Under the pieces are notes generated by a model. The model worked only from the letters and a program-made list of their open reading frames with translations, was not told the origin of the DNA and did not search any database. A program made the translations under genes and the position numbers. From a virus (Duplodnaviria > Heunggongvirae > Uroviricota > Caudoviricetes), in IMG/VR virus record IMGVR_UViG_2706794662_000007: a stretch of 64,000 nucleotides of DNA; one strand, 5' to 3'. The stretch's first letter is position 1. The number at the start of each line of letters is the position of its first letter. Of the stretch, positions 3,469 to 61,337 are shown piece by piece.

Positions 3469-3828
3469 TCAACCTTTCTTCATTAACTCGCGTTTAATTT
3501 CATCGGTACGCATCGTGACATCGGCAGCAGTGATCGCCTCGTTAAGCTTCACGATGTCCTCGATTTCCTGCGGTGACTTCTCTGCCAGATGGAAAATAGC
3601 AGCACGAATCACATCAGAGCGGGTGAATTTCTCGAAGCGAGGGATGAACTTCATCATCTCCAGCAGTTCGAAGTATTCGTCCTCCAGTGACATTGTGCGG
3701 CTTTTAATTTTCTCTTTGCCACGAGTCGGGCGTCCCTGTGGTCTGACTGGTTGGCGCAAAGGAGTTGTGTTCTTAGCCGGTGCATCAGACTCTTTGCGCT
3801 TTGCTAGGTCACCCATTTTCATGGACAT
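3469..3828 (-). CDS. small partition partner candidate (ParG/ribbon-helix-helix-like DNA-binding protein)
   Basis: 119 aa, basic N-terminus, start overlaps parA stop (ATGA-type junction at 3828). Confidence 0.35.
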   Translation of the reverse strand: MSMKMGDLAKRKESDAPAKNTTPLRQPVRPQGRPTRGKEKIKSRTMSLEDEYFELLEMMKFIPRFEKFTRSDVIRAAIFHLAEKSPQEIEDIVKLNEAITAADVTMRTDEIKRELMKKG

Positions 3829-11603: not shown

Positions 11604-14600
11604 TCAAAGTCGACCAATTCTTACCCTGAGTACATTATTGTCGTCGTAAACGTCGATTCTCTGCCCATTGATAACTAATCTCCCATTTCCTCCACTGTTA
11701 CCGTTAATCTCAAGCGTTCCGTTTTTGCCAAATCTCCATCCGGCTCGTCCTCTTACGAAGTTTGTTGATTGTAAGTCACCTACCTTTGCGTTTGTGATAG
11801 TGCCATCTTTGATATAAGCACCGTTCATATACGCAACGCTGTTTTCGATAACAAATGGCGTTGTGATCTTCCCATTAACATTGTTGACCAAACCAAATCG
11901 ATCTGCCCGCACCAAAAACTGAGAAAGCCCCGTTGTATCAATACCCAGCGCAATGCCCGCTACATACTTCTGCCCACCACTCGTTGAAGTTTCCATCTTC
12001 AATGTGTACGAGGTTGATACTTTTCTATTAGCGTCAGCTATAGCAGAAGCCTGCTGCTGAATAACGGCAACATTTCCATCTACAGACGCTTTCAGTGTAT
12101 CAATTCGTTTTCCTAGAGCGTTGTCTGCACTTGTTCTGGCCTTTGACTCTGACGTAATCGCTGCATTGATATAATTTGTTGTTTGCGACTGGAGATTAGT
12201 TACCCTTGTCGAAAGCGCTGCATCAGCATCAGTTCTGGCTTTCGTCTCTTCTGCTACAGCAGCCTTTATATCTTTACCTGTTTGTGTCTTTAGTGAGTTA
12301 ATCTGCGACGTCAATGCGGTATCAGCGGCAGCTCTTGCTTGAGTTTCAACCGCAACAGCTGCACTTATATCCTTAGCAGTTTTTGTTTTAAAACTTGCCA
12401 AGTCTTTTGCAATGGCAGAATCCTGACTTGTACGAGATGTCGATTCTCGCTCTATCGAGGACTGAAGATTATTAGCCCTCGTAGTAAGAGAAGAAATTTG
12501 TCTGGATAATGCATCGTTAGCGTCAGTTCTTGCTTTGGTTTCAACTGCTACCGCCGCTGCAATGTCTTTACCTGTTTTTGTTTTTAAACTACTAACTTCT
12601 CTTGATAGTGCACTATCGCCTGATGCTCTGGCTTCTCTTTCCTCATTAATAGCAGCTGATATGTCATCATCTACTTTTGCCTGCAATTGATTAATTTGTG
12701 TGGATAACGCTGAATCGCCGCTAACTCGCGCTTGTTGCTCACTTTTAATAGCAGCAGATATATCGTTATTAACTTTTGTTTGAAGTTGAGTTATTTGCCT
12801 TGATAATGCTTCATCTTGCGTTGCTCTTGTTTGTTGCTCTTCTCTAATAGCGGTTGAAATATCAGTATTTACTTTAGACTCCAGTTGTGTGATCTGCTTT
12901 GAAAGAGTCTCATTGGCCGATGCTCTTGCAGATTGTTCGGTCCTTATTGCGGCACTGATATCACCTTCAAATTTACTCTGTAATTGTGTCACACGATTGG
13001 CTAACGCATTATCACCATCAGTTCTGGCTGTCGCTTCTTCGAGAATAGATGCTCGAATGTTGTCACCAATCTCGGCTCGTATCTCTTCAACCTTAGACGC
13101 CATTGCTGACACATCATCGACAAGAATCTTTTGAGTCGTGGCAATTTTCGCGTTATTTACCAGCTGTCTGTGCTGATCTTCGTCCTGCCGCAACGCAAGA
13201 TCGATATTTGTCTTAGAAATGGCTTCAAGATTAGTTGTGATTTCTGAACTTACTCTTCCTACCTCAGCAACCGTTCTCCGCATTTCTTCTACAGCCGCAA
13301 CACTTTCATCAACCGATGATCTCATCGTTTCTATCTTTTTAGCATTCGCTAGATCTGCTTGTGCACGAACTTTACGCTCTTCGGCAATTAAAGATGATGC
13401 ATTTTCAAGTGCCGCATTTGCTGCTTCTACGACACCAGCAACAGAATCACCTTGTTTTGATACTGTATTACGTAGTTCAATAAGTGCTGCATTTGAATTT
13501 TCAACTTGTCGTAATGCATCATCTACTTTTTCCCGAGTGCTAGAAACTTCCGTTCTAAGCTCGCTTTGCGCATTCTCCAGTGTCTCGCTGCGTTCAGTAA
13601 ACGATGTTTTGAACTCATCGATACTACTCGTTAGCTCCTTATTTAATGCGGAAATTTCACCTTCCAGAGATTCGACGCTCTGATCGATATGATTATTGAT
13701 TTCATCAACAGCTTGTTGAGAAGCCTTACTGTCAATTTCCTCATTTAAAGCCTGGCCAAGTTCTGACGAGGTAATTTTATTGGCTAAAAATGAAAGAACA
13801 TCTCGCGTTGTGGCCTCTGTACCAAGATTTGAGTTTGGGCGACTCAACATGCCACGCTTATTTGCTGATCTAACCCAGTAATACCAAGTTTCACTATCCC
13901 CAAGACCAGAATGTGTAAAGGTGGTGCTTGCAGACTCTGCGATCAGTTTCGCCGTATCCAGATTGTTGGTCTGGGATGCGTAAACATTAATGTGATCAAG
14001 GTCTACCGAATCTGGATTAACCCAATTCAGTATCACATTACGATAGTCTCCAACGGCCGTTAATGACGTTGGTGCATCCGGCGGTGTCATTGTGCCCAGC
14101 ACCTGATAAACGGTACTGATAATCTCTGTTTTTTTACCGTTGAATGAAACCGCATACAGTTGGAAGTCGTAGCGTCCATTCTCCGCGACATTAACGATTT
14201 CGTATTGCTCTTCGGTTACACGTGCCGATTGCCAGTTCGATACATTGTTTTCATCAGAACGTCGCCAACTGATCCAATACTCTGGAGATTTCCCTTCCCA
14301 TGTTGCAGTCAGTTTTACTGACAGGTTGCCTGGGCTTGAGAGATAAGTCCCTTCGGTGATTTGCAAATTAGACGGCTTGGAGTAAGTCGGGTCCAATACC
14401 GTCGTATTCTGCGGGATAAGCGTTGCACCATTGTCGATTGCCTCATATTTAGACGGATTGTTCTCAACAGCGGTGATGTCAAAGCTACCCGACGTTTCCC
14501 CCTGAGCGATGTTAACGATGCGAACGCGCATAGGTTCGAGATCTGGTTCTGTGATTGTCCATACACCGTTCAAAACAGGCGTTTCCGCTGACGACAGAGC

Positions 14601-16316
14601 TTTTGAAAACGTAACCTTTGTTATGTTTTCGCCAGTTTCAAGAACATCGCGTTCAACGATTTTGCCTTCCTGATTCAATATCCGAATAAAGCTGCCGCTT
14701 TTAGCTAACGACACAGGCGCATCGAGAGTGATGCTGTTTTTGGTAAACTCCACAATTCGACCGGAGTTACGTTTACCTGCACGATATTTGTTCTGAATCA
14801 GAACGGTTTCACCGGGCATCAGAAATGAGGCGTCTAAACCGGCAGTAAATGTAATTACATCCGACTCCATTCTGGCGGTATACAAAAGCCACAAACCAAC
14901 TCGGTGAGCCTGGCCTCGGCTTGTACATCCAAATGCTACGACTTCTGTTTTACGCTCACCATAACGGCGCATTGCGTCCTGATCTTCAACGTACTCAATG
15001 TTTTGCTTATAACCGTCCTCCTTGTTGTTGTAGGTTACGAGCGCAACGGATGGGCGATCTTTACGCGCAGAACCTTTATAGGTAAACAATCCATCTTTGA
15101 CGTTCGAGTTGGTAAACATCATTACTGGATCTGATGGGCTATCCTGCATGATGTTAACCATGCCACCAGCCCAAAACACCATGCCGCGGAATGCACCGGC
15201 AATATCCTGAATTAGTCGGTATGCATCCTGTCTACTGGTGATCTGCGTATTGATTGCAAAGCGTTTCTCTTTACCACCAAAGCCATCATCAACCTCTTCG
15301 TCACAATATCGACCGATCTGGTACAGTTGGCCGAGATCAATCATAGATTCCGACACATACTGACCAAGCCCATATCGAGAATTGGTAAGCAAGTCGAAGA
15401 GAATCCACGCAGGGTTTGAAGATGACAACAGCTTAAAAGAGCCATCCCATACGCCATCATAAGTGTTGCTAGCCTCGTTGTAGTTTGATGGTACGCGAAT
15501 TTTTAATCCCCGCACCAGATAGGAACGAGAAGGCATAGAGCCGCCAAACTGCTCAGAATTAACCTTCAGTCCCACCAACGCAGAGTTTGGGTAGTTCATC
15601 GGTGTATCAACGATCTCACCGATTGAGTCCACCCATGTATCGTTATAAAGATACTGACCGCTGTTATCATCAGTAATACGAACTACTCGAACACTGTATG
15701 CCCGACCTGGCTTGGGTAACTTCAGCTCATAACTACGATAATAAGCACCGGTTTTCTTCGCTGTTAACTTAATACCAACGTTTTTTTCACCTTCTGCGAC
15801 CACATCTACAAATGTTGAATCTCCATTTGAGATCTGGAACTTATACTCAACGGTAGTGCCGTTTGTATCACCCGTTTTTTGGTCTATTCTTCGCAGAGAA
15901 GGGAACTTCATGATGACTCGAACACGATCGGCCTCATCGTTATCTATTGAAACCGTCACATAATGCGATTTCTTTAGTTGGATATTGATCGATTTAGGTG
16001 TTTCGACGAAATCAAAGCCAGACATTGGTGTCTGGTCTTGCGAGCCGTCTCGAAAATCCCATGAAATTCCGCTAAAGTTTGAAGAGCCGTCTTCATTTAC
16101 TATGGGCAAATCGTCGACAAAAATAGATCTTGCGCCATTTACCAAGCCGCCAATTACGCCTTCTCCAAGAAGATCGAGAATAGAGGCCATAGCACGAGAA
16201 TTTACGGTATCGTCTGCTTCAACTGGTGTGCGACTAGAGCTTTTGCTACTTTTTTTGCCACCAGAACCTGCAATTAATAGAGGTAACTTTTTCTTCTTGA
16301 ACTGTTCCATGTCCAA
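11604..16316 (-). CDS. host-specificity / central tail tip protein (lambda J-like), 1570 aa
   Basis: N-terminal half aligns by eye with lambda gpJ; C-terminal half has ~28-aa coiled repeats. Confidence 0.85.
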   Translation of the reverse strand: MDMEQFKKKKLPLLIAGSGGKKSSKSSSRTPVEADDTVNSRAMASILDLLGEGVIGGLVNGARSIFVDDLPIVNEDGSSNFSGISWDFRDGSQDQTPMSGFDFVETPKSINIQLKKSHYVTVSIDNDEADRVRVIMKFPSLRRIDQKTGDTNGTTVEYKFQISNGDSTFVDVVAEGEKNVGIKLTAKKTGAYYRSYELKLPKPGRAYSVRVVRITDDNSGQYLYNDTWVDSIGEIVDTPMNYPNSALVGLKVNSEQFGGSMPSRSYLVRGLKIRVPSNYNEASNTYDGVWDGSFKLLSSSNPAWILFDLLTNSRYGLGQYVSESMIDLGQLYQIGRYCDEEVDDGFGGKEKRFAINTQITSRQDAYRLIQDIAGAFRGMVFWAGGMVNIMQDSPSDPVMMFTNSNVKDGLFTYKGSARKDRPSVALVTYNNKEDGYKQNIEYVEDQDAMRRYGERKTEVVAFGCTSRGQAHRVGLWLLYTARMESDVITFTAGLDASFLMPGETVLIQNKYRAGKRNSGRIVEFTKNSITLDAPVSLAKSGSFIRILNQEGKIVERDVLETGENITKVTFSKALSSAETPVLNGVWTITEPDLEPMRVRIVNIAQGETSGSFDITAVENNPSKYEAIDNGATLIPQNTTVLDPTYSKPSNLQITEGTYLSSPGNLSVKLTATWEGKSPEYWISWRRSDENNVSNWQSARVTEEQYEIVNVAENGRYDFQLYAVSFNGKKTEIISTVYQVLGTMTPPDAPTSLTAVGDYRNVILNWVNPDSVDLDHINVYASQTNNLDTAKLIAESASTTFTHSGLGDSETWYYWVRSANKRGMLSRPNSNLGTEATTRDVLSFLANKITSSELGQALNEEIDSKASQQAVDEINNHIDQSVESLEGEISALNKELTSSIDEFKTSFTERSETLENAQSELRTEVSSTREKVDDALRQVENSNAALIELRNTVSKQGDSVAGVVEAANAALENASSLIAEERKVRAQADLANAKKIETMRSSVDESVAAVEEMRRTVAEVGRVSSEITTNLEAISKTNIDLALRQDEDQHRQLVNNAKIATTQKILVDDVSAMASKVEEIRAEIGDNIRASILEEATARTDGDNALANRVTQLQSKFEGDISAAIRTEQSARASANETLSKQITQLESKVNTDISTAIREEQQTRATQDEALSRQITQLQTKVNNDISAAIKSEQQARVSGDSALSTQINQLQAKVDDDISAAINEEREARASGDSALSREVSSLKTKTGKDIAAAVAVETKARTDANDALSRQISSLTTRANNLQSSIERESTSRTSQDSAIAKDLASFKTKTAKDISAAVAVETQARAAADTALTSQINSLKTQTGKDIKAAVAEETKARTDADAALSTRVTNLQSQTTNYINAAITSESKARTSADNALGKRIDTLKASVDGNVAVIQQQASAIADANRKVSTSYTLKMETSTSGGQKYVAGIALGIDTTGLSQFLVRADRFGLVNNVNGKITTPFVIENSVAYMNGAYIKDGTITNAKVGDLQSTNFVRGRAGWRFGKNGTLEINGNSGGNGRLVINGQRIDVYDDNNVLRVRIGRL

Positions 16317-17732: not shown

Positions 17733-18165
17733 AATGGATCACACCGTCGGCAAAATAATTCCGACGCGCATTACAGGCGTCATAACGTTTTGTGCAGTAA
17801 TCCGCACCAGACATAGACGTCTGCTGGTTATTTTTGTCGAAATATGGACCGGTATAGCCGCATTCTGGCCCTCGGTATTTCCACGGGCAGGTGTTTTTAA
17901 TGATCTGACGATACGGCAGTTGTACCCCCATCAAATCGAACACACTGGACAATTCAAACTCGACAACCTGATGAGTTTCGAGAGTTTTCTGTTCGATAAA
18001 CCACATTTCATCCGGGAAATGTTGGTTTGGATCTGCTGTTGGGTTGCCGTCTTTAAAATTAACGGCATCGAGGAAGCGAGCCAGCGTCATCTTGCGAATA
18101 ATGCGGCAGCCAACAAGATCGTCGTTCGCCTGAACTTCCGCAGAGACGGTTCCGGCAAAGTTCGN
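17698..18165 (-). CDS. minor tail protein L-like (5' part lost in N-run)
   Basis: C-terminal Cys cluster CPWKYRGPECGYTG...C..RYDAC; N-terminus masked. Confidence 0.65.
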   Translation of the reverse strand, partial: XNFAGTVSAEVQANDDLVGCRIIRKMTLARFLDAVNFKDGNPTADPNQHFPDEMWFIEQKTLETHQVVEFELSSVFDLMGVQLPYRQIIKNTCPWKYRGPECGYTGPYFDKNNQQTSMSGADYCTKRYDACNARRNYFADGVIHFGGFIGATRYG

Positions 18166-18414
18166 NNNNNNNNNNNNNNNNNNNNNNNNNNNNNNNNNNN
18201 NNNNNNNNNNNNNNNNNNNNNNNNNNNNNNNNNNNNNNNNNNNNNNNNNNNNNNNNNNNNNNNNNNNNNNNNNNNNNNNNNNNNNNNNNNNNNNNNNNNN
18301 NNNNNNNNNNNNNNNNNNNNNNNNNNNNNNNNNNNNNNNNNNNNNNNNNNNNNNNNNNNNNNNNNNNNNNNNNNNNNNNNNNNNNNNNNNNNNNNNNNNN
18401 NNNNNNNNNNNNNN
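18166..18414. other. run of 249 N (unresolved or masked bases)
   Basis: literal n characters. Confidence 1.
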
Positions 18415-39248: not shown

Positions 39249-39766
39249 GAACATTGGACATCACCTACGGCATACCGGCTGAAGTATGGCCGCGAGACTA
39301 CGAACATGCTGAACGTACCTTGCTCTTCTGGCGGAGTGCAAAATTTCCTGTAAGAGTCACTCTCGAAGACGGCCAAGTGTTTTGCATGTATGTCTACGGG
39401 CTATTGAGCGCAAGAAATAAGCTGAACCTCACACCAGATCCGCTTAGCAACACAAATCGTATAAGGCTCCCTCTTGAGCGCATTAGCACAATTGAGTCGG
39501 GCATAGAAGAGGTTGACACTTCATTCACAGGTCGACTAACGCTAAACAATGAACAGATGGTTAATCAGCCATCACGTCGTGACTTTTTTAAGATATGTCG
39601 TCAGGCTTACCAAAACGGCAAATCTATAAGGGTCTACATGGCAGACGGTCGCGAAATTGAGGGAACGTCAGATGGCGTTGACGCCTGTCTAGTCACACTT
39701 AAGTTGGAAGACGGTAGAAAAATACTTATTTTCTTCGATTGGGTTGAACGAATCCTTCCGTTTTAA
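39245..39766 (+). CDS. hypothetical protein, 173 aa
   Basis: ATGA overlap with preceding secreted-protein gene. Confidence 0.45.
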   Translation: MRTLDITYGIPAEVWPRDYEHAERTLLFWRSAKFPVRVTLEDGQVFCMYVYGLLSARNKLNLTPDPLSNTNRIRLPLERISTIESGIEEVDTSFTGRLTLNNEQMVNQPSRRDFFKICRQAYQNGKSIRVYMADGREIEGTSDGVDACLVTLKLEDGRKILIFFDWVERILPF

Positions 39767-39959
39767 TTTCTATAAGGGTAATAACCGGCTAAGTCCGGTT
39801 ATTATTTTACATGCCATTCATTTTATACTCTTTCAATTCTACCCCGTATAAATATATAAGGTCTAAAGCCGGAATCGATTATTTATTTAGGGAACACCCT
39901 CGACGATCTAACATTTATTTCTAGGACTTTCATCCCTGCAAAAAAACTTAAAAAAACAC

Positions 39960-39988
39960 TTGCAATCTTTTTTCGCGTATCGATAATT
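39960..39988 (+). promoter_or_regulatory. sigma70-like promoter (TTGCAA, 17-bp spacer, ATAATT)
   Basis: hexamers read directly; ~75 nt upstream of 40064 gene. Confidence 0.45.
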
Positions 39989-40063
39989 GAACGCATCAGG
40001 AACGAGTGCAAAACACTTTCTTTCTTGAGTTAAATTTTAATATTTATACTAAGGAATAAAATC

Positions 40064-40714
40064 ATGGCTAACATTATCATTTCTAAAAAGTCCATCATTG
40101 AAGCTGCATCTATTGTATCCGACGAACTGCGCGAAAAAGCAGATCTGGCAACTCAAACATATAACGAACATTATAAAAATGGTACGCACACTAAAGCAGA
40201 CAAAGCAAATATGCAAGCTGCGACCACTAAACTTGCTTACTTCATCAACAACGTCGTAAACGCTGTAGAAGACGAAAAATTATGCTCTGTTTTCTACTAT
40301 GCGATTAAAGCAAGCAAACAAGCGCCAGAAGTATTTTTTCGTGACGCTATGACTAATAGTTATTCACTGGAAAAACTGGTTTATCTGGTTAAATCAATTA
40401 AAGCTGGAAAATGTGTTTATTCCGTCGCTGATATGTCTGGATCTCGTGTATTCGCTTTAATCGATATGATTAACGACGAGATCGACACGTTCACGAATGG
40501 CGCTGTTTTCGATTTAATGAATGAAGCCAAAAAAGCGTGTGAAATTAAATTGGACGCTGGCTATACTCAAGCTAACCAGCTAATCAATCTTTGCGAACGT
40601 CTCGGACTTGTTGAGAAAGTCAAAGGAATGGGAAGCGCCAAAGCTGGTACACAGCAATATCGCTTTATCAAGAATGATTTCTACAATTATCTAGCTGACG
40701 CTTTCAAAGCGTAA
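40064..40714 (+). CDS. hypothetical protein, 216 aa, AT-rich cargo gene
   Basis: ORF track; own promoter and downstream hairpin. Confidence 0.5.
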   Translation: MANIIISKKSIIEAASIVSDELREKADLATQTYNEHYKNGTHTKADKANMQAATTKLAYFINNVVNAVEDEKLCSVFYYAIKASKQAPEVFFRDAMTNSYSLEKLVYLVKSIKAGKCVYSVADMSGSRVFALIDMINDEIDTFTNGAVFDLMNEAKKACEIKLDAGYTQANQLINLCERLGLVEKVKGMGSAKAGTQQYRFIKNDFYNYLADAFKA

Positions 40715-41579: not shown

Positions 41580-41843
41580 NNNNNNNNNNNNNNNNNNNNN
41601 NNNNNNNNNNNNNNNNNNNNNNNNNNNNNNNNNNNNNNNNNNNNNNNNNNNNNNNNNNNNNNNNNNNNNNNNNNNNNNNNNNNNNNNNNNNNNNNNNNNN
41701 NNNNNNNNNNNNNNNNNNNNNNNNNNNNNNNNNNNNNNNNNNNNNNNNNNNNNNNNNNNNNNNNNNNNNNNNNNNNNNNNNNNNNNNNNNNNNNNNNNNN
41801 NNNNNNNNNNNNNNNNNNNNNNNNNNNNNNNNNNNNNNNNNNN
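41580..41843. other. run of 264 N
   Basis: literal n characters. Confidence 1.
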
Positions 41844-47095: not shown

Positions 47096-49034
47096 TTACT
47101 TAACCTGGTGGCCAGGTTTAGCACCAGCATCCGGGCTTAACAGGAAGATATCTTTCCCGCCAGGACCGGCAGCCATCACCATGCCTTCAGAGATACCGAA
47201 GCGCATTTTACGTGGTGCCAGGTTAGCCACCATAATGGTGTGACGACCAATCAGTGCCTGTGGATCTGGATAAGCGGAACGGATGCCTGAGAAGACATTA
47301 CGCTTTTCACCACCGAGATCCAGCGTCAGGCGAAGCAGTTTGTCAGAACCTTCGACAAACTCCGCGTTTTCAATCAGCGCCACACGCAGGTCAACTTTGG
47401 CGAAGTCGTCAAAGGTGATGGTTTCCTGAATCGGTTCGTCAGCCAGTGGGCCAGTTACCGGTGCAGCTGTGGCTTTCACTTCTTCTTTGGATGCTTCCAC
47501 CAGTGCTTCCACCTGTTTCATATCGATACGGTTATACAGTGCCTTGAACGGATTCACTTTATGGCCCAGAAGCGGTTGCTGGATACCATCCCAGGTCAGT
47601 TCTGTATTCAGGAATGCTTCTGCACGTTCAGTCAGTTTCGGCAGTACCGGTTTCAGGTACGTCATCAGCACGCGGAACAGGTTAATGCCCATAGAGCAAA
47701 TCGCCTGCAGATCTGCATCGCGACCTTCCTGCTTCGCCACCACCCACGGAGCCTGTTCATCGACATAGCGATTAGCCAGGTCAGCCAATGCCATGATTTC
47801 ACGGATAGCTTTACCAAATTCGCGGCTTTCCCATGCTTCGCCAATCACTTCAGCGGCATCAGTAAAGGTTTTGTACAGTTGCGGGTCAGCCAGTTCGCTT
47901 GTCAGCACGCCGTCAAAACGCTTGTTGATAAAGCCTGCATTACGGGAGGCCAGGTTAACCACTTTGTTCACGATATCGGCATTCACGCGCTGAACGAAAT
48001 CTTCCAGGTTGAGATCGATATCATCAATGCGCGAAGAGAGTTTCGCAGTGTAGTAGTAACGCAGGCTGTCAGCGTCAAAATGATTCAGCCAGGTGCTGGC
48101 TTTAATAAAGGTGCCGCGAGACTTGGACATCTTCGCGCCGTTCACCGTCACATAGCCGTGAACAAACAGGTTGGTCGGCTTGCGGAAGTTGCTGCCTTCC
48201 AGCATGGCAGGCCAGAACAGACTGTGGAAGTAAACGATATCTTTGCCGATGAAGTGGTACAGCTCGGCGGTGGAGTCTTTCTTCCAGTATTCGTCGAAGC
48301 TTACGCTGTCGCCGCGCTTGTCGCACAGATTCTTGAAAGAACCCATGTAGCCAATCGGCGCGTCCAGCCAGACGTAGAAATATTTGCCCGGCGCGTTCGN
48401 NNNNNNNNNNNNNNNNNNNNNNNNNNNNNNNNNNNNNNNNNNNNNNNNNNNNNNNNNNNNNNNNNNNNNNNNNNNNNNNNNNNNNNNNNNNNNNNNNNNN
48501 NNNNNNNNNNNNNNNNNNNNNNNNNNNNNNNNNNNNNNNNNNNNNNNNNNNNNNNNNNNNNNNNNNNNNNNNNNNNNNNNNNNNNNNNNNNNNNNNNNNN
48601 NNNNNNNNNNNNNNNNNNNNNNNNNNNNNNNNNNNNNNNNNNNNNNNNNNNNNNNNNNNNNNNNNNNNNNNNNNNNNNNNNNNNNNNNNNNNNNNNNNNN
48701 NNNNNNNNNNNNNNNNNNNNNNNNNNNNCTCTTCGCTGTGCGTCGAGTGATAGTTGTCATAGCTGATGTTAAAGCCTGCGAAATCAGTCTGATGTTCCTG
48801 ACTCATTTCGCCAATCATCTGTTCCGGTGTGATACCAAGCTGCTGTGCTTTCAGCATGATTGGCGTACCGTGGGCATCGTCGGCACAGATGAAATTAACC
48901 TCGTGGCCGCGCATTCGCTGGTAACGAACCCAGACATCAGCCTGGATGTGCTCCAGCATATGGCCGAGGTGGATTGAGCCGTTAGCGTACGGCAGCGCGC
49001 ACGTCACCAGAATTTTCTTCGCGACTTGGGTCAT
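47096..49034 (-). CDS. metG: methionine--tRNA ligase (interrupted by N-run; frame differs on the two sides of the mask)
   Basis: N-terminus [29 protein letters not shown] and C-terminus ...[24 protein letters not shown] recognised as enterobacterial MetRS. Confidence 0.9.
48390..48728. other. run of 339 N inside metG
   Basis: literal n characters. Confidence 1.
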
Positions 49035-50904: not shown

Positions 50905-51423
50905 CTAAAAATCAAANNNNNNNNNNNNNNNNNNNNNNNNNNNNNNNNNNNNNNNNNNNNNNNNNNNNNNNNNNNNNNNNNNNNNNNNNNNNNNNNNNNN
51001 NNNNNNNNNNNNNNNNNNNNNNNNNNNNNNNNNNNNNNNNNNNNNNNNNNNNNNNNNNNNNNNNNNNNNNNNNNNNNNNNNNNNNNNNNNNNNNNNNNNN
51101 NNNNNNNNNNNNNNNNNNNNNNNNNNNNNNNNNNNNNNNNNNNNNNNNNNNNNNNNNNNNNNNNNNNNNTTTAAAGGAAGATAGGTTCCCCATAGTAGCT
51201 GTCTGCCGTGCGCTCGTGTGAAATACCGGGCCATCTTCGGATTGCTATGCTGCTTAGGAGCGCCTGGTCTGTATGTCTGATACCCGGCCAACATCCCATC
51301 AAACCTGTATAGAGGGAATGTAACAACTCCTTCGCTTTCATCGATCCACTGTCTATATGGATGCACATCATAGCGGTAGTTACGAGTTAGCAAATGAGCT
51401 TCCAGCTTTCCAAATTTAGTCAT
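50905..51423 (-). CDS. hypothetical protein interrupted by N-run
   Basis: N-terminal part MTKFGKLEAHLLTRNYRYDVHPYRQWIDESEG... visible; start at internal Met. Confidence 0.4.
   Translation of the reverse strand: MTKFGKLEAHLLTRNYRYDVHPYRQWIDESEGVVTFPLYRFDGMLAGYQTYRPGAPKQHSNPKMARYFTRAHGRQLLWGTYLPLXXXXXXXXXXXXXXXXXXXXXXXXXXXXXXXXXXXXXXXXXXXXXXXXXXXXXXXXXXXXXXXXXXXXXXXXXXXXXXXXXXXXXFDF
50917..51169. other. run of 253 N
   Basis: literal n characters. Confidence 1.
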
Positions 51424-53489: not shown

Positions 53490-53739
53490 NNNNNNNNNNN
53501 NNNNNNNNNNNNNNNNNNNNNNNNNNNNNNNNNNNNNNNNNNNNNNNNNNNNNNNNNNNNNNNNNNNNNNNNNNNNNNNNNNNNNNNNNNNNNNNNNNNN
53601 NNNNNNNNNNNNNNNNNNNNNNNNNNNNNNNNNNNNNNNNNNNNNNNNNNNNNNNNNNNNNNNNNNNNNNNNNNNNNNNNNNNNNNNNNNNNNNNNNNNN
53701 NNNNNNNNNNNNNNNNNNNNNNNNNNNNNNNNNNNNNNN
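53490..53739. other. run of 250 N
   Basis: literal n characters. Confidence 1.
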
Positions 53740-57187: not shown

Positions 57188-58892
57188 TCATTTAACGCGT
57201 TTGAAAACGTATACGCTGACTGTGATCCCTGTGTCTTCAAACTCGTTGGTAAACGACTTCCCTCTGGCATAAACGTAATTATCCATCGTCATCCAGTCCA
57301 GTATTGGCGCNNNNNNNNNNNNNNNNNNNNNNNNNNNNNNNNNNNNNNNNNNNNNNNNNNNNNNNNNNNNNNNNNNNNNNNNNNNNNNNNNNNNNNNNNN
57401 NNNNNNNNNNNNNNNNNNNNNNNNNNNNNNNNNNNNNNNNNNNNNNNNNNNNNNNNNNNNNNNNNNNNNNNNNNNNNNNNNNNNNNNNNNNNNNNNNNNN
57501 NNNNNNNNNNNNNNNNNNNNNNNNNNNNNNNNNNNNNNNNNNNNNNNNNNNNNNNNNNNNNNNNNCCAGATCGGCGTTAATATAGGCCAGAAGATCCCCA
57601 CGTCCGGCTTGAGGCTCCAACAGCTTCTCACCAGGCTTCAATTCAGTGGCTCTGGCAACGTACTCAGCAATCAAGCGTGGGGTAGGGTAGAACTGGTGTG
57701 ATTTTGTATCCGGTATTAAACCGGTAGCCACAATCGTATTTAGCGTATGGCCGATCTCATACGGGAACTGCCAGTGCTTTTTCTCCTGCACGCCGCCAAT
57801 GAAGCTCAGTGTGCGCTCAAGCTCTTCCACCTGCGACTTCTGGAGAGCTGAATCAGAGAAGTACCATACGCCTTTGTCTTTGCTCAATCGCCCGTCACGA
57901 AGCGCAGTGCGAACCGGCACGGAGATCGTCTTCTGGATTAACCCGAACTGCTTTGGTGCCCGTGTTTTTGGCGCAGTTCGGCATGGCGCGGGGATTGCAG
58001 CAGGCATACTGTAAGCCAGCACCTCATTCAACTTCCAGGCCACGTCAGGATGTATTTCAAAGTGAACGTTGCCGTTCTTGAACATCTTCACGCGCATCAG
58101 ATTTCCATCGACGTTCATCCAGTCACCGGTCTGGCAGTCGTTTGCCCGATACGCAGCTGATAGCACCTCAGCAGTGCGGTTGATGGTAATAAATTCTTTG
58201 TGCGCGAAGAAATGAAGCAAGACACGCAGATCGTCGATGTAGTCCTCTTTGCGATAGTTCACGCTAACGCTGTCACGCCAGAAATCAGAAATGCAGTCAG
58301 CGATTATCAGACGCTCGCTGAAACCGTTTGTCTTATTTGTCTTGTGCGCAGGACTCAGCGCCTTAAACAAGCCATACACGCGCTCAGAGAGATATTTGTG
58401 CCTGTCATTCAGCAAATTAAGCATCGTTGGTATGACCGTTTCTGCTTTGAACTCCGGTACACCAACGAACTCTTTAACCTTCATCTGATAGCCGGTTCTG
58501 TCAGTTTTGATGACTTCCTGCTTGCCCTCGATAAATAGCTCACGCCACTCGTCGCGACGGGAAGCTGGCATGATCAGCAGAACGTTAGTCATATCCGTAA
58601 CCTTCCTCCAGTACTCGGCCCAAATATTCTGTTTCACCCATTCCAGATCGACGTTATCCAGCCAGACTCGATTCAAACGTGAGCGATCTTCATCTGGTCG
58701 GTGGTTTAGTCGAAGCAGGCGATTAATCATGTTGTGGCGTTCATCGCCATAAACGAAGTCGTGTACCTGATACATGAAGGAGATCTCTTTCTCGCACTCG
58801 GCCACAATTTCGTGGATGACGTTCATTTCCTGTCGATAGTCGATAGCAGTGTTTGAGCTGGCATCGCCCATGATGGAAAGGGCTGTATTCAT
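57188..58892 (-). CDS. gamma-class N6-adenine DNA methyltransferase-like protein with ~390-aa N-terminal extension (interrupted by N-run; C-terminal frame uncertain)
   Basis: motif X-like QFYPTPR and motif I-like LEPQAGRGDL just before mask. Confidence 0.5.
57311..57565. other. run of 255 N
   Basis: literal n characters. Confidence 1.
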
Positions 58893-58995
58893 AATTGCAC
58901 CATTAAGAAATGATTTGTTTAATGATGCAATTATTTCAAAAATAAAAAGGTGCTAAATAGAAATTAACAGGCAATACTTAAAATAAAGGCATTGA

Positions 58996-59670
58996 CTAAT
59001 CATACTTGGATGTATTTATAACCAGGACTTTATTTGTATATAGTTTTTTTACATTCCATGTAACATTACTTGAATACCATTCACCATTATATATTTGGTT
59101 TCCCGTTGCGCCTGTCATTGTTACGTATACAGGTCTGTCGTAAGGTGTTCGTCTATAGTTATATACTCCAACCATTGCAGGCATTATCGCACACGGGTAT
59201 CCCATATTTATGGTAAATTGAGGATTTGTAATAGTGATAATCTCTGCATCAAGGGGCATCATCTCACCGTGATATACCATTTTACCTGCGCTATTATACA
59301 TGGCAATACCATATCCTGAATGTGGTAACACCATATCAGAAAAAGCATAAACTGTTATCGTTCCGGGGTTTCCTCCAACCTGATTCAGTCTGAGAACATT
59401 ATACCCATCTCTAAATTCATGAACGAACATCATATTCGCCTTATTACTGCTTTTTATAAAGAAAAAACATGATTTGTTCGACGGTATTGAAGTCTTAAAA
59501 ACAGAACCTTTAGACGTGGACATTGTCCCCCTATTAATCAAATTTTGCGGTGTAAATTCTGGACTCATCCACACATTACCATTTGACTGAGTAATTGACA
59601 TCCCGAACATTATTGTTATCCCCAATATGTATATATATAAGATCCAAGTCCCTTGTATAAATTTGACCAA
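58996..59670 (-). CDS. hypothetical protein in strongly AT-rich island, N-terminal TM segment
   Basis: ORF track; overlaps 59616..59897 in another frame. Confidence 0.35.
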   Translation of the reverse strand: MVKFIQGTWILYIYILGITIMFGMSITQSNGNVWMSPEFTPQNLINRGTMSTSKGSVFKTSIPSNKSCFFFIKSSNKANMMFVHEFRDGYNVLRLNQVGGNPGTITVYAFSDMVLPHSGYGIAMYNSAGKMVYHGEMMPLDAEIITITNPQFTINMGYPCAIMPAMVGVYNYRRTPYDRPVYVTMTGATGNQIYNGEWYSSNVTWNVKKLYTNKVLVINTSKYD

Positions 59671-59897
59671 CTTACTGTATTGCCGTTAATAGTGATAGTT
59701 GGTGTAGGTATATTTACATGGTTATCGTTATTTAAAGGCATCAATGAGCACACAGCATGTAATGATTTGCCAGGTGGTGGATTTGGGTAAGTCTTAGAGC
59801 CTGACGTGGTTGTAAATCGATCAAGAAAAAAAATAGGAGTAAGGAAGCCGGTAACGTTAACTCCCTTATTATTGTAGATCCCTGTACCGTATGCCAT
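59616..59897 (-). CDS. hypothetical ORF, possibly 5' part of a frameshifted gene continuing into 58996..59670
   Basis: 55-nt overlap in different frames. Confidence 0.3.
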   Translation of the reverse strand: MAYGTGIYNNKGVNVTGFLTPIFFLDRFTTTSGSKTYPNPPPGKSLHAVCSLMPLNNDNHVNIPTPTITINGNTVSWSNLYKGLGSYIYTYWG

Positions 59898-59951
59898 TTT
59901 TCATCCTTGTTTTTATCAACATAATATGGCCGATCATGCGGCCATATCAGA

Positions 59952-60521
59952 TCAATTAGAGCTTTGAAAGGCTTTGTGTGGCTGTGTTGCGAGGTTATGT
60001 CGATGGCTTAACTCACGCATCATGTCTTCAAGGCGACTCTTTGTGTCGTCGAGTTGGTCAGCCATTGCTCCTAAAAGCTGACGAACTACCATCGGATCGT
60101 CGCTGTTTAGTGATGGCATTTTATAACCCGCCTGAGAAGACATCAGATTGAATGCTGACATCAACATCGTTAGAGAGGATTTAAGCCCGGCAATTTCACG
60201 ATCTTTGCTGGCAATAATCGTCTCACTTTTGTTACTGTCATGAGTTCCTTGAGTCTCGATCACCATATCCAAAGTCTCTTGCAACTTATCAGCTCTCTGT
60301 TTTTCAGCAAGATAATGAACACCGAAATGATGTGCTAAAGCTACAACCTGAGTTGGCTCTTCAAAGGTGGACTCAAAATTAAGTGCTGTAACCACTCTCT
60401 CAAAAATGGAAACGTCTTCTATTCCTCGAAGAATGGCTAACATTTTGACAAGTTCATTAGCATCCATTTCTTCGAATAGGGCGTTTTGTTCATCAGCTAT
60501 TGCTTTGCATTTCTCGCACAT
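59952..60521 (-). CDS. hypothetical protein, 189 aa
   Basis: ORF track; family-1 motif 17 nt upstream. Confidence 0.45.
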   Translation of the reverse strand: MCEKCKAIADEQNALFEEMDANELVKMLAILRGIEDVSIFERVVTALNFESTFEEPTQVVALAHHFGVHYLAEKQRADKLQETLDMVIETQGTHDSNKSETIIASKDREIAGLKSSLTMLMSAFNLMSSQAGYKMPSLNSDDPMVVRQLLGAMADQLDDTKSRLEDMMRELSHRHNLATQPHKAFQSSN

Positions 60522-60818
60522 ATGTTTTCCTTAATGCTTAAACAAGTTGTTTTCTTATTGGCTTTATTGTGATGTGGCATAAAAGGGGAGCAAGCTAAAC
60601 GTAAAGGTGCAAACTCTCTATTTCGGTCAACGAAACACAATGGCCATTTGACCCTTGTCATTAACACGTTGCTTTACGGACTAGCGGATAAGCGAAGTAG
60701 ATCGCCAGACCAATGAGGACGCCATCAGAAATGACAGACATCATCTTTCCCGTAAAATCCACCAACACCGCCATCACCAGAAGAGCAATGACGGTCACAA
60801 GCCGGAATCTCTCAAGCA

Positions 60819-61244
60819 TTAGAGATAAGCATCCAGTGACAACTGAAGCGCCTGGGCGATCTTTTTCAGCGCCTGCTCTTCTGGTTCATCAATGCCGTCT
60901 TGGTCGGCAATATCAAGGCACAGACAAAGTACATCTACTGCATCATCAGTCCCGGCCACATCCGCCAGCTCACGTAAAGCCTGGGCATTAGCACGGCGCG
61001 GTGAGGCTTCGTATTGAGCGCGGATATTGGCGCTCATCTGGGCTATCTCACCAGCAAAAGGAGAAAATGCAGGCAGAGCTGCAATTGTTTTCTCAAGAAT
61101 GGAAATTTCTTTTGCATCGCATGTACCGTTGGCATAGGAGATCATGTACCCACCCCACACGGTGGCTTCAACCGCATCACGGTTCTCCATTTTTTTGACT
61201 TCGATAACTGCTTTACGAGTTTTCTTTTTGAAGAAACCTAACAT
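60819..61244 (-). CDS. TerB-like protein candidate
   Basis: 141 aa; N-terminus MLGFFKK and acidic D-x-D-E C-terminal helices resemble TerB. Confidence 0.4.
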   Translation of the reverse strand: MLGFFKKKTRKAVIEVKKMENRDAVEATVWGGYMISYANGTCDAKEISILEKTIAALPAFSPFAGEIAQMSANIRAQYEASPRRANAQALRELADVAGTDDAVDVLCLCLDIADQDGIDEPEEQALKKIAQALQLSLDAYL

Positions 61245-61337
61245 GTGTTTTCCTTTTGTTATTGGTCAAAACAAGTTGTTTTCTAGTTAAATAAATTGCT
61301 TACGCAAAGACGGTCAATGCATATGCACTAACAACCG

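Follow-up and report, generated by a model that had tools for sequence, protein, structure and literature searches.

The locus downstream of the central tail-fibre gene gpJ was named the 'bona fide RBP locus' (RBP, receptor-binding protein) by Maffei et al., and which allele a small siphovirus carries corresponds with the terminal receptor that it uses (PMC8594841); the proposal is also made in a preprint (10.64898/2026.04.02.716166). One allele is the FhuA-linked cassette of T1, phi80, HK022, N15, ES18, Bas07, vojen and welsh, whose products are annotated as 'outer membrane protein', 'membrane-associated protein' and Cor, and in which genes for proteins of 101 and 213-224 amino acids follow gpJ with cor next on the opposite strand (PMC13164509; BASEL table). 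For one of two such proteins of a Webervirus, a confident complex with FhuA has been predicted (KlebPhaCol; PMC12629751). A homologous pair, of 91-92 and 204 amino acids, is present in the BtuB-type locus of Bas04 FritzSarasin, Bas06 KarlJaspers and tonnikala (Drexlerviridae, Tempevirinae). Here we describe a pair of genes of this kind in a 64,000-nucleotide (nt) stretch of DNA from a virus of the Caudoviricetes (IMG/VR record IMGVR_UViG_2706794662_000007), referred to below as the window. The genes, which encode proteins of 93 amino acids (59616-59897, minus strand) and 204 amino acids (58996-59610, minus strand), lie in an AT-rich island of about 1 kb that an initial annotation took for a possible single gene split by a frameshift. 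On balance, we favor the view that the island came in by horizontal transfer as a two-gene host-range cassette, up to and including a role in receptor binding, rather than a frameshifted gene.

Plasmid p09EL50 of E. coli O104:H4 2009EL-2050 and 'Escherichia phage CMS-2020a' match the island and its flanking sequence at 100% identity; phage PhiR41_1 does so at 99.7%, and a wider clade, which comprises plasmids of ~108-114 kb and phage Cyrano (the 87% clade below), at ~87%. p09EL50, PhiR41_1, Cyrano and the other members of the 87% clade are SSU5-like phage-plasmids, and the window derives from one such phage-plasmid of E. coli of ~109 kb. Among 5,426 complete E. coli genomes the island is present in 150, nearly always on a plasmid. 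tblastn searches against phage records gave matches in 478 of them for the large protein and in 278 for the small one, and the two genes are adjacent in every locus examined. Outside the plasmid lineage, the nearest relatives are gp22/gp21 of JenP1 and JenP2 (Nonagvirus) and L0126/L0127 of the Stx phages 933W and VT2-Sakai, with protein identities to the window pair of 70%/79% for JenP2 and 65%/60% for 933W; the nucleotide similarity to JenP1/JenP2 (73%) spans 58996-59903, which is exactly the two genes. A literature search on L0126/L0127 returned only unrelated papers. The pair of JenP2, like that of tonnikala (Warwickvirus), abuts gpJ in convergent orientation and that of 933W lies between the tail gene L0125 and lom, whereas the pair of the window adjoins neither. 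In vojen, welsh and JakobBernoulli (Bas07) the order is gpJ, a gene of ~100 codons, a gene of ~213-224 codons and then cor on the opposite strand, and in SSU5 the distant homologues 023/024 are found between the tail-fibre adhesin and a Cor-like gene.

The small and large proteins of the window share 57% and 41% identity with Bas06_0025 and Bas06_0024, and 49% and 41% with tonnikala_76 and tonnikala_75, over their full length, and the BtuB-type phages also share with the window a junction made of a stop codon, a short spacer and an ATG. The BtuB-type pair, however, stands beside gpJ and convergent with it, is preceded by an 89-amino-acid lipoprotein that is presumably an exclusion factor, and is carried by lytic T1-like phages, whereas the pair of the window lies among accessory genes at a distance of ~43-48 kb from the J gene, lacks a lipoprotein homologue in the window and belongs to a temperate phage-plasmid. 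The lipoproteins in question, tonnikala_77 (locus L007, 5451-5720) and bas06_0026 (locus L095, 6546-6815), are both of 89 amino acids with an LTGC lipobox and are annotated as hypothetical; each is probably a BtuB-directed exclusion factor. tblastn searches with tonnikala_77, bas06_0026, bas07_0026 and SSU5 Cor found no match in the window at E ≤ 1, and a lipobox scan of the open reading frames of the window was empty. The FhuA-linked cassette has the same two-protein architecture as the window, but constitutes a different allele, the large protein of which is distant (25-33% identity over part of its length).

When the longest open reading frames are taken, the island holds a frame of 93 codons that starts with ATG (59616-59897) and one of 224 codons that starts with TTG (58996-59670), and these lie in different frames and overlap by 55 nt. 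This overlap, which the initial annotation had pointed out, is mechanically correct, yet it exists only because the longest frame (TTG 59670) was taken and vanishes with the better supported start at ATG 59610. This ATG sits 5 nt past the TAA of the upstream gene and is the start used for the 204-amino-acid protein in the RefSeq records and in PhiR41_1, while the annotation of Cyrano places the start a few codons further in. The 93-amino-acid protein is likewise a separate coding sequence in RefSeq and phage records, and the four annotated records that we compared all give two coding sequences with a spacer of 5 or 2 nt. The junction (59611-59623, minus strand) reads TGG GGA TAA, CAATA, ATG, and the last two codons of the 93-codon gene form a GGGGA ribosome-binding site (59619-59623) 8 nt ahead of ATG 59610. 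This is a translational-coupling arrangement, and the two genes are co-oriented and coupled.

If TTG 59670 were the true start, the downstream product would be a 224-amino-acid protein that overlaps the upstream gene and carries an N-terminal membrane anchor or signal. The extension (59611-59670, minus strand) does belong to the longest frame and is hydrophobic, with a maximum Kyte-Doolittle score over 19 residues (KD19) of 1.83 as against 1.12 for the 204-amino-acid protein. However, six of the seven substitutions that separate the overlap from that of the 87% clade fall at third positions of the 93-codon frame, and together the seven change one residue in that frame but five of 17 residues in the extension; the changes are thus synonymous in the other frame while altering the sequence of the extension itself. 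The extension further varies from 11 to 25 codons between clades and is not conserved in sequence, the 87% clade and JenP2 have a stop one codon upstream of the matching TTG, every annotation uses the ATG or a nearby start, and it is the ATG that has the well-placed GGGGA site. The TTG start is accordingly very improbable: the extension is not coding in this frame, and the N-terminal hydrophobic segment ascribed to the downstream frame is an artefact of the TTG start.

The pattern of substitutions relative to the 87% clade extends over both genes, with 11, 2 and 33 substitutions at the first, second and third codon positions of the 93-codon gene and 25, 8 and 55 at those of the 204-codon gene. 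This excess at third positions indicates that both are real coding sequences under purifying selection. The junction was also compared among 33 distinct sequences from the plasmid clades, JenP1/2, Stx phages and T1-like phages, which reach down to ~40% protein identity, and the arrangement of W-G/R-stop, a spacer of 2 or 5 nt and ATG is kept in 32 of them. The sole exception is an IMG/VR Stx-type locus (L065, upstream of position 3580), in which GGGGGTGA is changed to GGGGGGGA, so that the upstream stop is lost and the small open reading frame is a few codons longer; this is probably a sequencing error in a G-run or a rare variant.

Could the two frames nevertheless be a recent pseudogene, a single gene interrupted by a frameshift mutation, or only seemingly so through misreading or misassembly of a repeat? 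Both frames are collinear with single-chain homologues, a (TA)n-like run is present at the junction and the window contains masked runs of N, all of which would fit such an origin. However, the identical sequence recurs in independent complete assemblies and phage isolates (100% and 99.7%), even clades as distant as 40% identity have the two-gene junction, purifying selection acts on both genes, and the single-chain relatives are distant; a tblastn search of the identical 109-kb phage record with the single chain P0077, for example, matches at 26.5% identity. A word-indexed search of 5.8 billion proteins found no fused close relatives, the relatives of the 93-amino-acid protein being at most 118 amino acids long and those of the 204-amino-acid protein at most 216. 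The homopolymer near 59640-59670 that had been singled out for resequencing does not exist, the stretch being the (TA)n-like run, and the only run of at least eight identical bases is an A8 at 59826-59833, inside the 93-codon gene, all eight bases of which are invariant in four aligned sequences. With the stop-spacer-ATG junction in nearly all sequences compared, third-position bias in both genes and no fused close relatives, a split by frameshift or sequencing error does not hold; we regard the pseudogene as effectively refuted, with next to no probability left to it, and the two frames are almost certainly two independent genes.

What survives of the one-gene idea is that, in distant homologues, a single protein has an N-terminal part matching the upstream frame and a C-terminal part matching the downstream one, with no lesion involved. 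An exhaustive profile search over 1.84 billion representative proteins retrieved 117 relatives, of which about a dozen are 307-325 amino acids long, and most of these match the profile of the 204-amino-acid protein only from about residue 100 onwards. In hhalign comparisons, the profile of the 93-amino-acid protein aligns with residues 16-80 of the single chains of ~315 amino acids (probability 93%, E 2.9e-7), the two sharing the motifs SGSKTY/GSGSRSY and GNTVSW, and that of the 204-amino-acid protein aligns with residues 101-310 (probability 99.5%, E 3.6e-22). The single chain of Pantoea phage Vid5, gp23 (326 amino acids), begins at the stop codon of the J-like gene, and tblastn with a single-chain query covers both open reading frames in Stx phages. 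Since the two proteins lie end to end on the single chains, either the pair arose when the gene of a single-chain tail-tip protein split, or the single chains arose by fusion. The single chains are collinear with the two window proteins taken together, but are only ~25-30% identical to them and continue through an inter-domain linker of ~10-20 residues; in the window, a stop codon, a 5-nt spacer and an ATG stand in the place of exactly this linker. By these alignments, the gene split is best seen as old and stable and not as a lesion. An assignment of the proteins of ~315 amino acids to the Rtp44/Oekolampad family was ruled out by tblastn, and they form a separate branch that includes Vid5. 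The LptD-binding protein of Oekolampad/Rtp44 (PDB identifier 9RPT; PMC12685063) differs from the pair in being one chain of 309-321 amino acids instead of two and in its receptor.

The existence of single-chain homologues also bears on programmed -1 frameshifting, by which the heptamer AAATTTA (59658-59664, minus strand; A_AAT_TTA) would join the first ~80 residues of the 93-amino-acid protein to the 204-amino-acid protein, with a fraction of the product being a single chain of ~300 amino acids. The heptamer is a candidate slippery site of the canonical X_XXY_YYZ form and lies in the zero frame of the 93-codon gene where the overlap begins, no stop interrupts the -1 frame between this point and the downstream ATG, and upstream of the ATG this frame stays open over 11-25 codons in all clades examined. 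However, the heptamer is found only in the window and the 87% clade and is abolished by synonymous changes in JenP2 (TCG AAT TTA), JenP1 (AAC), the L038 junction (AAC CTG) and the Stx phages (AAT CTT), while tonnikala is without any in-frame heptamer and differs in its residues at that point. Four such in-frame heptamers are found by chance in the AT-rich gene of 93 codons. No stimulatory structure follows the site either, as the 75 nt from the heptamer on fold at -6.9 kcal/mol (z +0.58), and 142 of 200 shuffled sequences fold at least as well. The linker thus made is not conserved, and the fusion would displace the conserved last strand, GSYIYTYWG. As a feature of the family, programmed frameshifting, which the initial annotation had raised as well, is therefore unsupported and most unlikely, and the heptamer is judged to be a chance occurrence.

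The 204-amino-acid protein matches phrog_425, 'membrane associated protein', over its full length (residues 1-204 on profile positions 3-224, E 4.2e-69), and the 93-amino-acid protein matches phrog_557, 'outer membrane protein' (residues 1-93 on profile positions 1-92, E 1.4e-29). Scans of the 204-amino-acid protein against Pfam (E ≤ 0.1) and NCBIfam (E ≤ 1) gave no match, and those of the 93-amino-acid protein were likewise fruitless. RefSeq lists the 87% homologue of the former, WP_000467662.1 (pEC332_01; locus L002, 3147-3761), as 'cysteine peptidase family C39 domain-containing protein', a name that looks spurious given that the window protein has no match in Pfam or NCBIfam. No signal peptide, lipobox or transmembrane segment is seen in either protein, as judged by KD19 profiles (maxima of 0.79 for the 93-amino-acid and 1.12 for the 204-amino-acid protein) and sequence inspection, and their N-termini, MAYGTGIYNNKG and MFGMSITQSNGN, show neither a charged n-region nor a hydrophobic core. 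The absence of export signals fits assembly into virions in the cytoplasm. Both proteins are soluble and β-rich. Their AlphaFold2 models are all-β, with mean confidence (pLDDT) of 83.8 for the 204-amino-acid and 82.5 for the 93-amino-acid protein; the smaller is modelled as a small β-sandwich, and the larger, with two β-sandwich subdomains, is the likely receptor-binding body.

A short motif, (Y/F)G-x-x-h-x-N-x-x-G-x-x-V...P, occurs at residues 2-22 of the 93-amino-acid protein and at residues 2-22 and 99-120 of the 204-amino-acid protein, and so marks the start of each protein and of the second subdomain of the larger one. A similar motif begins the Oekolampad receptor-binding protein. The three copies fall within stretches modelled with low confidence, which cover the initial ~20 residues of each protein and, in the larger one, residues ~91-120. 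An internal three-fold repeat was considered and rejected, since the short hairpin motif YGxxhYNxxGxxV alone recurs and homology between whole domains falls short of significance. A sequence search of the PDB with a single-chain homologue and both profiles gave nothing meaningful.

A candidate partner for the pair is encoded in the window itself. The J-like tail-tip fibre gene (11604-16316, minus strand; an open reading frame of 1570 codons) encodes a protein whose C-terminal 250 amino acids are 34-36% identical to the J proteins of Drexlerviridae (E 1e-33). It ends in ...VYDDNNVLRVRIGRL, also read as ...DDNNVLRVRIGRL, and the C-terminus of SSU5 J is nearly identical. The motif D-x-N-G-V-L-R-V-x-I/V-G closes the J proteins of tonnikala, Bas06, Bas07, vojen, welsh and JenP2, and a variant, DQNGRLAVRIG, closes L0125 of 933W, so that the C-terminal motif is common to seven other tip proteins. 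The J protein of lambda lacks the motif and has a different end; it has its own LamB-binding domain. These sequence correlations are consistent with a tip protein encoded separately and carried on J, and we infer that the window J is the docking partner of the pair. The 933W protein L0125 (locus L005, 4434-5702), encoded just before L0126/L0127, ends in ...VYDQNGRLAVRIGRLR and thus carries the motif of those siphovirus J proteins that have separate tip proteins, which hints that the short-tailed Stx phages may use the same docking system.

The base composition and the flanks of the island point to its origin elsewhere. The GC content of 58893-59951 is 0.355 (0.356 for 58900-59950) as against a mean of 0.456 (standard deviation 0.033) for windows of 1,050 nt, and the island is the minimum among 1,106 such windows, which bears out the sharp fall over ~1 kb reported initially. 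In a blastn search with 57700-61300, phage-plasmids of Klebsiella as well as SSU5 match in two pieces, and in SSU5, pJN2-26 and others the pieces are spaced about 0.92-0.93 kb more closely than in the window. In these relatives the DUF4942 gene is followed directly by the homologue of a 189/190-codon gene, with no island between them, and at the place of the island the alignment shows a GC-rich hairpin (GGGGG-TGAAAG-CCCCC). Relative to SSU5 and the Klebsiella phage-plasmids, the low-GC insertion spans 58960-59951, with approximate edges and a length of about 0.92-0.99 kb by different estimates. The island is a compositionally foreign, horizontally acquired insertion, and the earlier suggestion of inserted cargo was in this respect sound, since the island is absent from this site in SSU5 and the Klebsiella relatives. 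At its left edge, between the stop of the 189-codon gene and the start of the 93-codon gene, lies a hairpin with an 11-bp stem (59922-59949, minus strand; no U-tract) of -17.3 kcal/mol (z -4.4), a stability that none of 200 shuffled sequences reaches. All 27 of the E. coli SSU5-like loci retrieved contain its core, and no JenP, Stx or Warwickvirus locus does. A promoter and terminator scan found nothing beyond chance.

The neighbors on the same strand, as annotated in p09EL50, are ead/Ea22-like genes, a DUF4942 methylase-like gene, the island, the 189-codon gene, DUF3927 (TciB-like), TerB (TciA-like) and RNase HI; Pfam and NCBIfam scans of the 189-amino-acid product gave nothing useful. The identical 109-kb record contains only one copy of the 204-amino-acid family. 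Unlike SSU5, p09EL50 has a tail locus made up of the J-like gene, a tail-fibre gene and a 170-codon gene, with no equivalents of 023/024/cor.

Based on these similarities of sequence and gene order, we consider a tail-tip receptor-binding role of the pair rather likely. The two chains would assemble non-covalently into a tail-tip receptor-binding protein, in which the 93-amino-acid chain, corresponding to the N-terminal domain of the single-chain forms, would attach to the tip of J by docking on the C-terminal ...NVLRVRIGRL of the J-like fibre of the plasmid. The 204-amino-acid chain would bind the 93-amino-acid chain and offer loops to an outer-membrane protein of E. coli, and this contact would lead to irreversible adsorption and set the terminal receptor specificity of the phage-plasmid lineage. 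The cassette, gained at a new site, may have replaced the ancestral 023/024/cor set and so changed the receptor of the lineage.

As to which receptor this might be, the alleles of typed phages offer some guidance. Bas04 FritzSarasin (Warwickvirus), which depends on BtuB, has the tonnikala allele at 99.5% identity, and Bas06 KarlJaspers (Hanrivervirus), also BtuB-dependent, has a lipoprotein gene followed by genes of 91 and 204 codons, convergent with J. Bas07, of the same genus as Bas06, depends on FhuA and has the other allele with cor, and its large protein is only ~25% identical to that of the window over part of the length. BtuB is the best guess for the pair of the window because identity with the Bas06 pair amounts to 57% and 41%, as against ~25% with the large protein of Bas07, although this assignment is tentative and could well be wrong.

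The same genes could also be cargo for lysogenic conversion or superinfection exclusion (a moron), the proteins of which would act at the envelope of the carrier and block the receptor or the incoming phage without being parts of the virion. PHROG places phrog_425 under 'moron, auxiliary metabolic gene and host takeover', the pair of 933W precedes lom, and in the window the genes form a low-GC cargo island in the company of ead/Ea22-like, DUF4942 and TerB/TciA-like genes rather than tail genes. However, with no export signal, neither protein can reach the envelope by known routes, and the true exclusion factors in such loci are separate small lipoproteins (tonnikala_77, bas06_0026, Cor). In addition, the alleles follow receptor use in lytic phages, the single-chain homologues lie directly after gpJ, and there may be a likeness in fold to a solved tail receptor-binding protein, for which the support from Foldseek is weak. 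The initial annotation, which proposed cargo with an exclusion or virulence function, was thus right about foreign cargo, but such a function appears considerably less probable than receptor binding by the virion.

Several observations weigh against a receptor-binding role of the cassette and against BtuB as the receptor. Searching the PDB with the model of the 204-amino-acid protein, Foldseek gave no significant match; the C-terminal domains of PCSK9 ranked first, and the Oekolampad structure (9rpt_C) was fifth in the list with a weak TM score of about 0.3. The Oekolampad protein bas18_0025 shows no profile similarity either (hhalign probability below 1% with profiles A2, A3 and A4). The position of the pair, among minus-strand accessory genes and ~43-48 kb from the tail genes, is atypical of the family, as is the lack of an adjacent exclusion lipoprotein. 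The typed alleles behind the case for BtuB are no more than 41% and 57% identical to the window proteins, and for the alleles of JenP1/2 and the Stx phages, which are closer to those of the window, the sources consulted give neither a function nor a receptor. Stx podoviruses carry the pair, yet their known receptor determinant is a different tail protein. Finally, the KanT1 paper (2026) reports no structural match for the two proteins and surmises a role related to exclusion through Cor (PMC13164509).

A bolder extension of the receptor-binding cassette, which we regard as conceivable but rather unlikely, is that the pair acts as a portable two-piece host-range plug, with the 93-amino-acid protein as an adaptor on the ...NGVLRVxIGR tip of J-like proteins and the 204-amino-acid protein as the binder. 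As the pieces are separate and would act in trans, such a cassette could work from any position in the genome. If so, it could pass between siphoviruses, Stx podoviruses and phage-plasmids and give each new carrier another receptor, here probably BtuB, while the tail operon is left untouched. In a rarer variant, the AAATTTA site would add a minor single-chain form fused by frameshifting.

Some further features of the window may be recorded. The second-lowest GC content (about 0.367) is found at ~39500-40200, on the plus strand, in a stretch with an open reading frame of 173 codons and the start of one of 216 codons, and may be another cargo insertion. There are six runs of N of 250-329 nt each (18165-18414, 41580-41843, 48400-48728, 50917-51169, 53490-53739 and 57311-57565), the last of which falls within the DUF4942 gene, immediately downstream of the island. 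Since the complete records run on without a break at these positions, the runs appear to reflect masking and not gaps in the assembly. p09EL50 (locus L009, 28005-31296) also carries full-length metG (methionine-tRNA ligase) and apbC, which are host-like housekeeping genes.

The cassette is real but is an ordinary module of a known kind, in which the split architecture and the off-site location are unusual. Its analysis corrects a tempting misreading as a frameshift or pseudogene as well as database names that mislead, such as 'outer membrane protein', 'membrane associated protein' and 'C39 peptidase'. E. coli commonly carries SSU5-like phage-plasmids, and the cassette provides a testable candidate for a determinant of their host range. 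A receptor cassette can lie far from the tail genes, and genome-based receptor prediction that is limited to the region downstream of gpJ would miss such a case.

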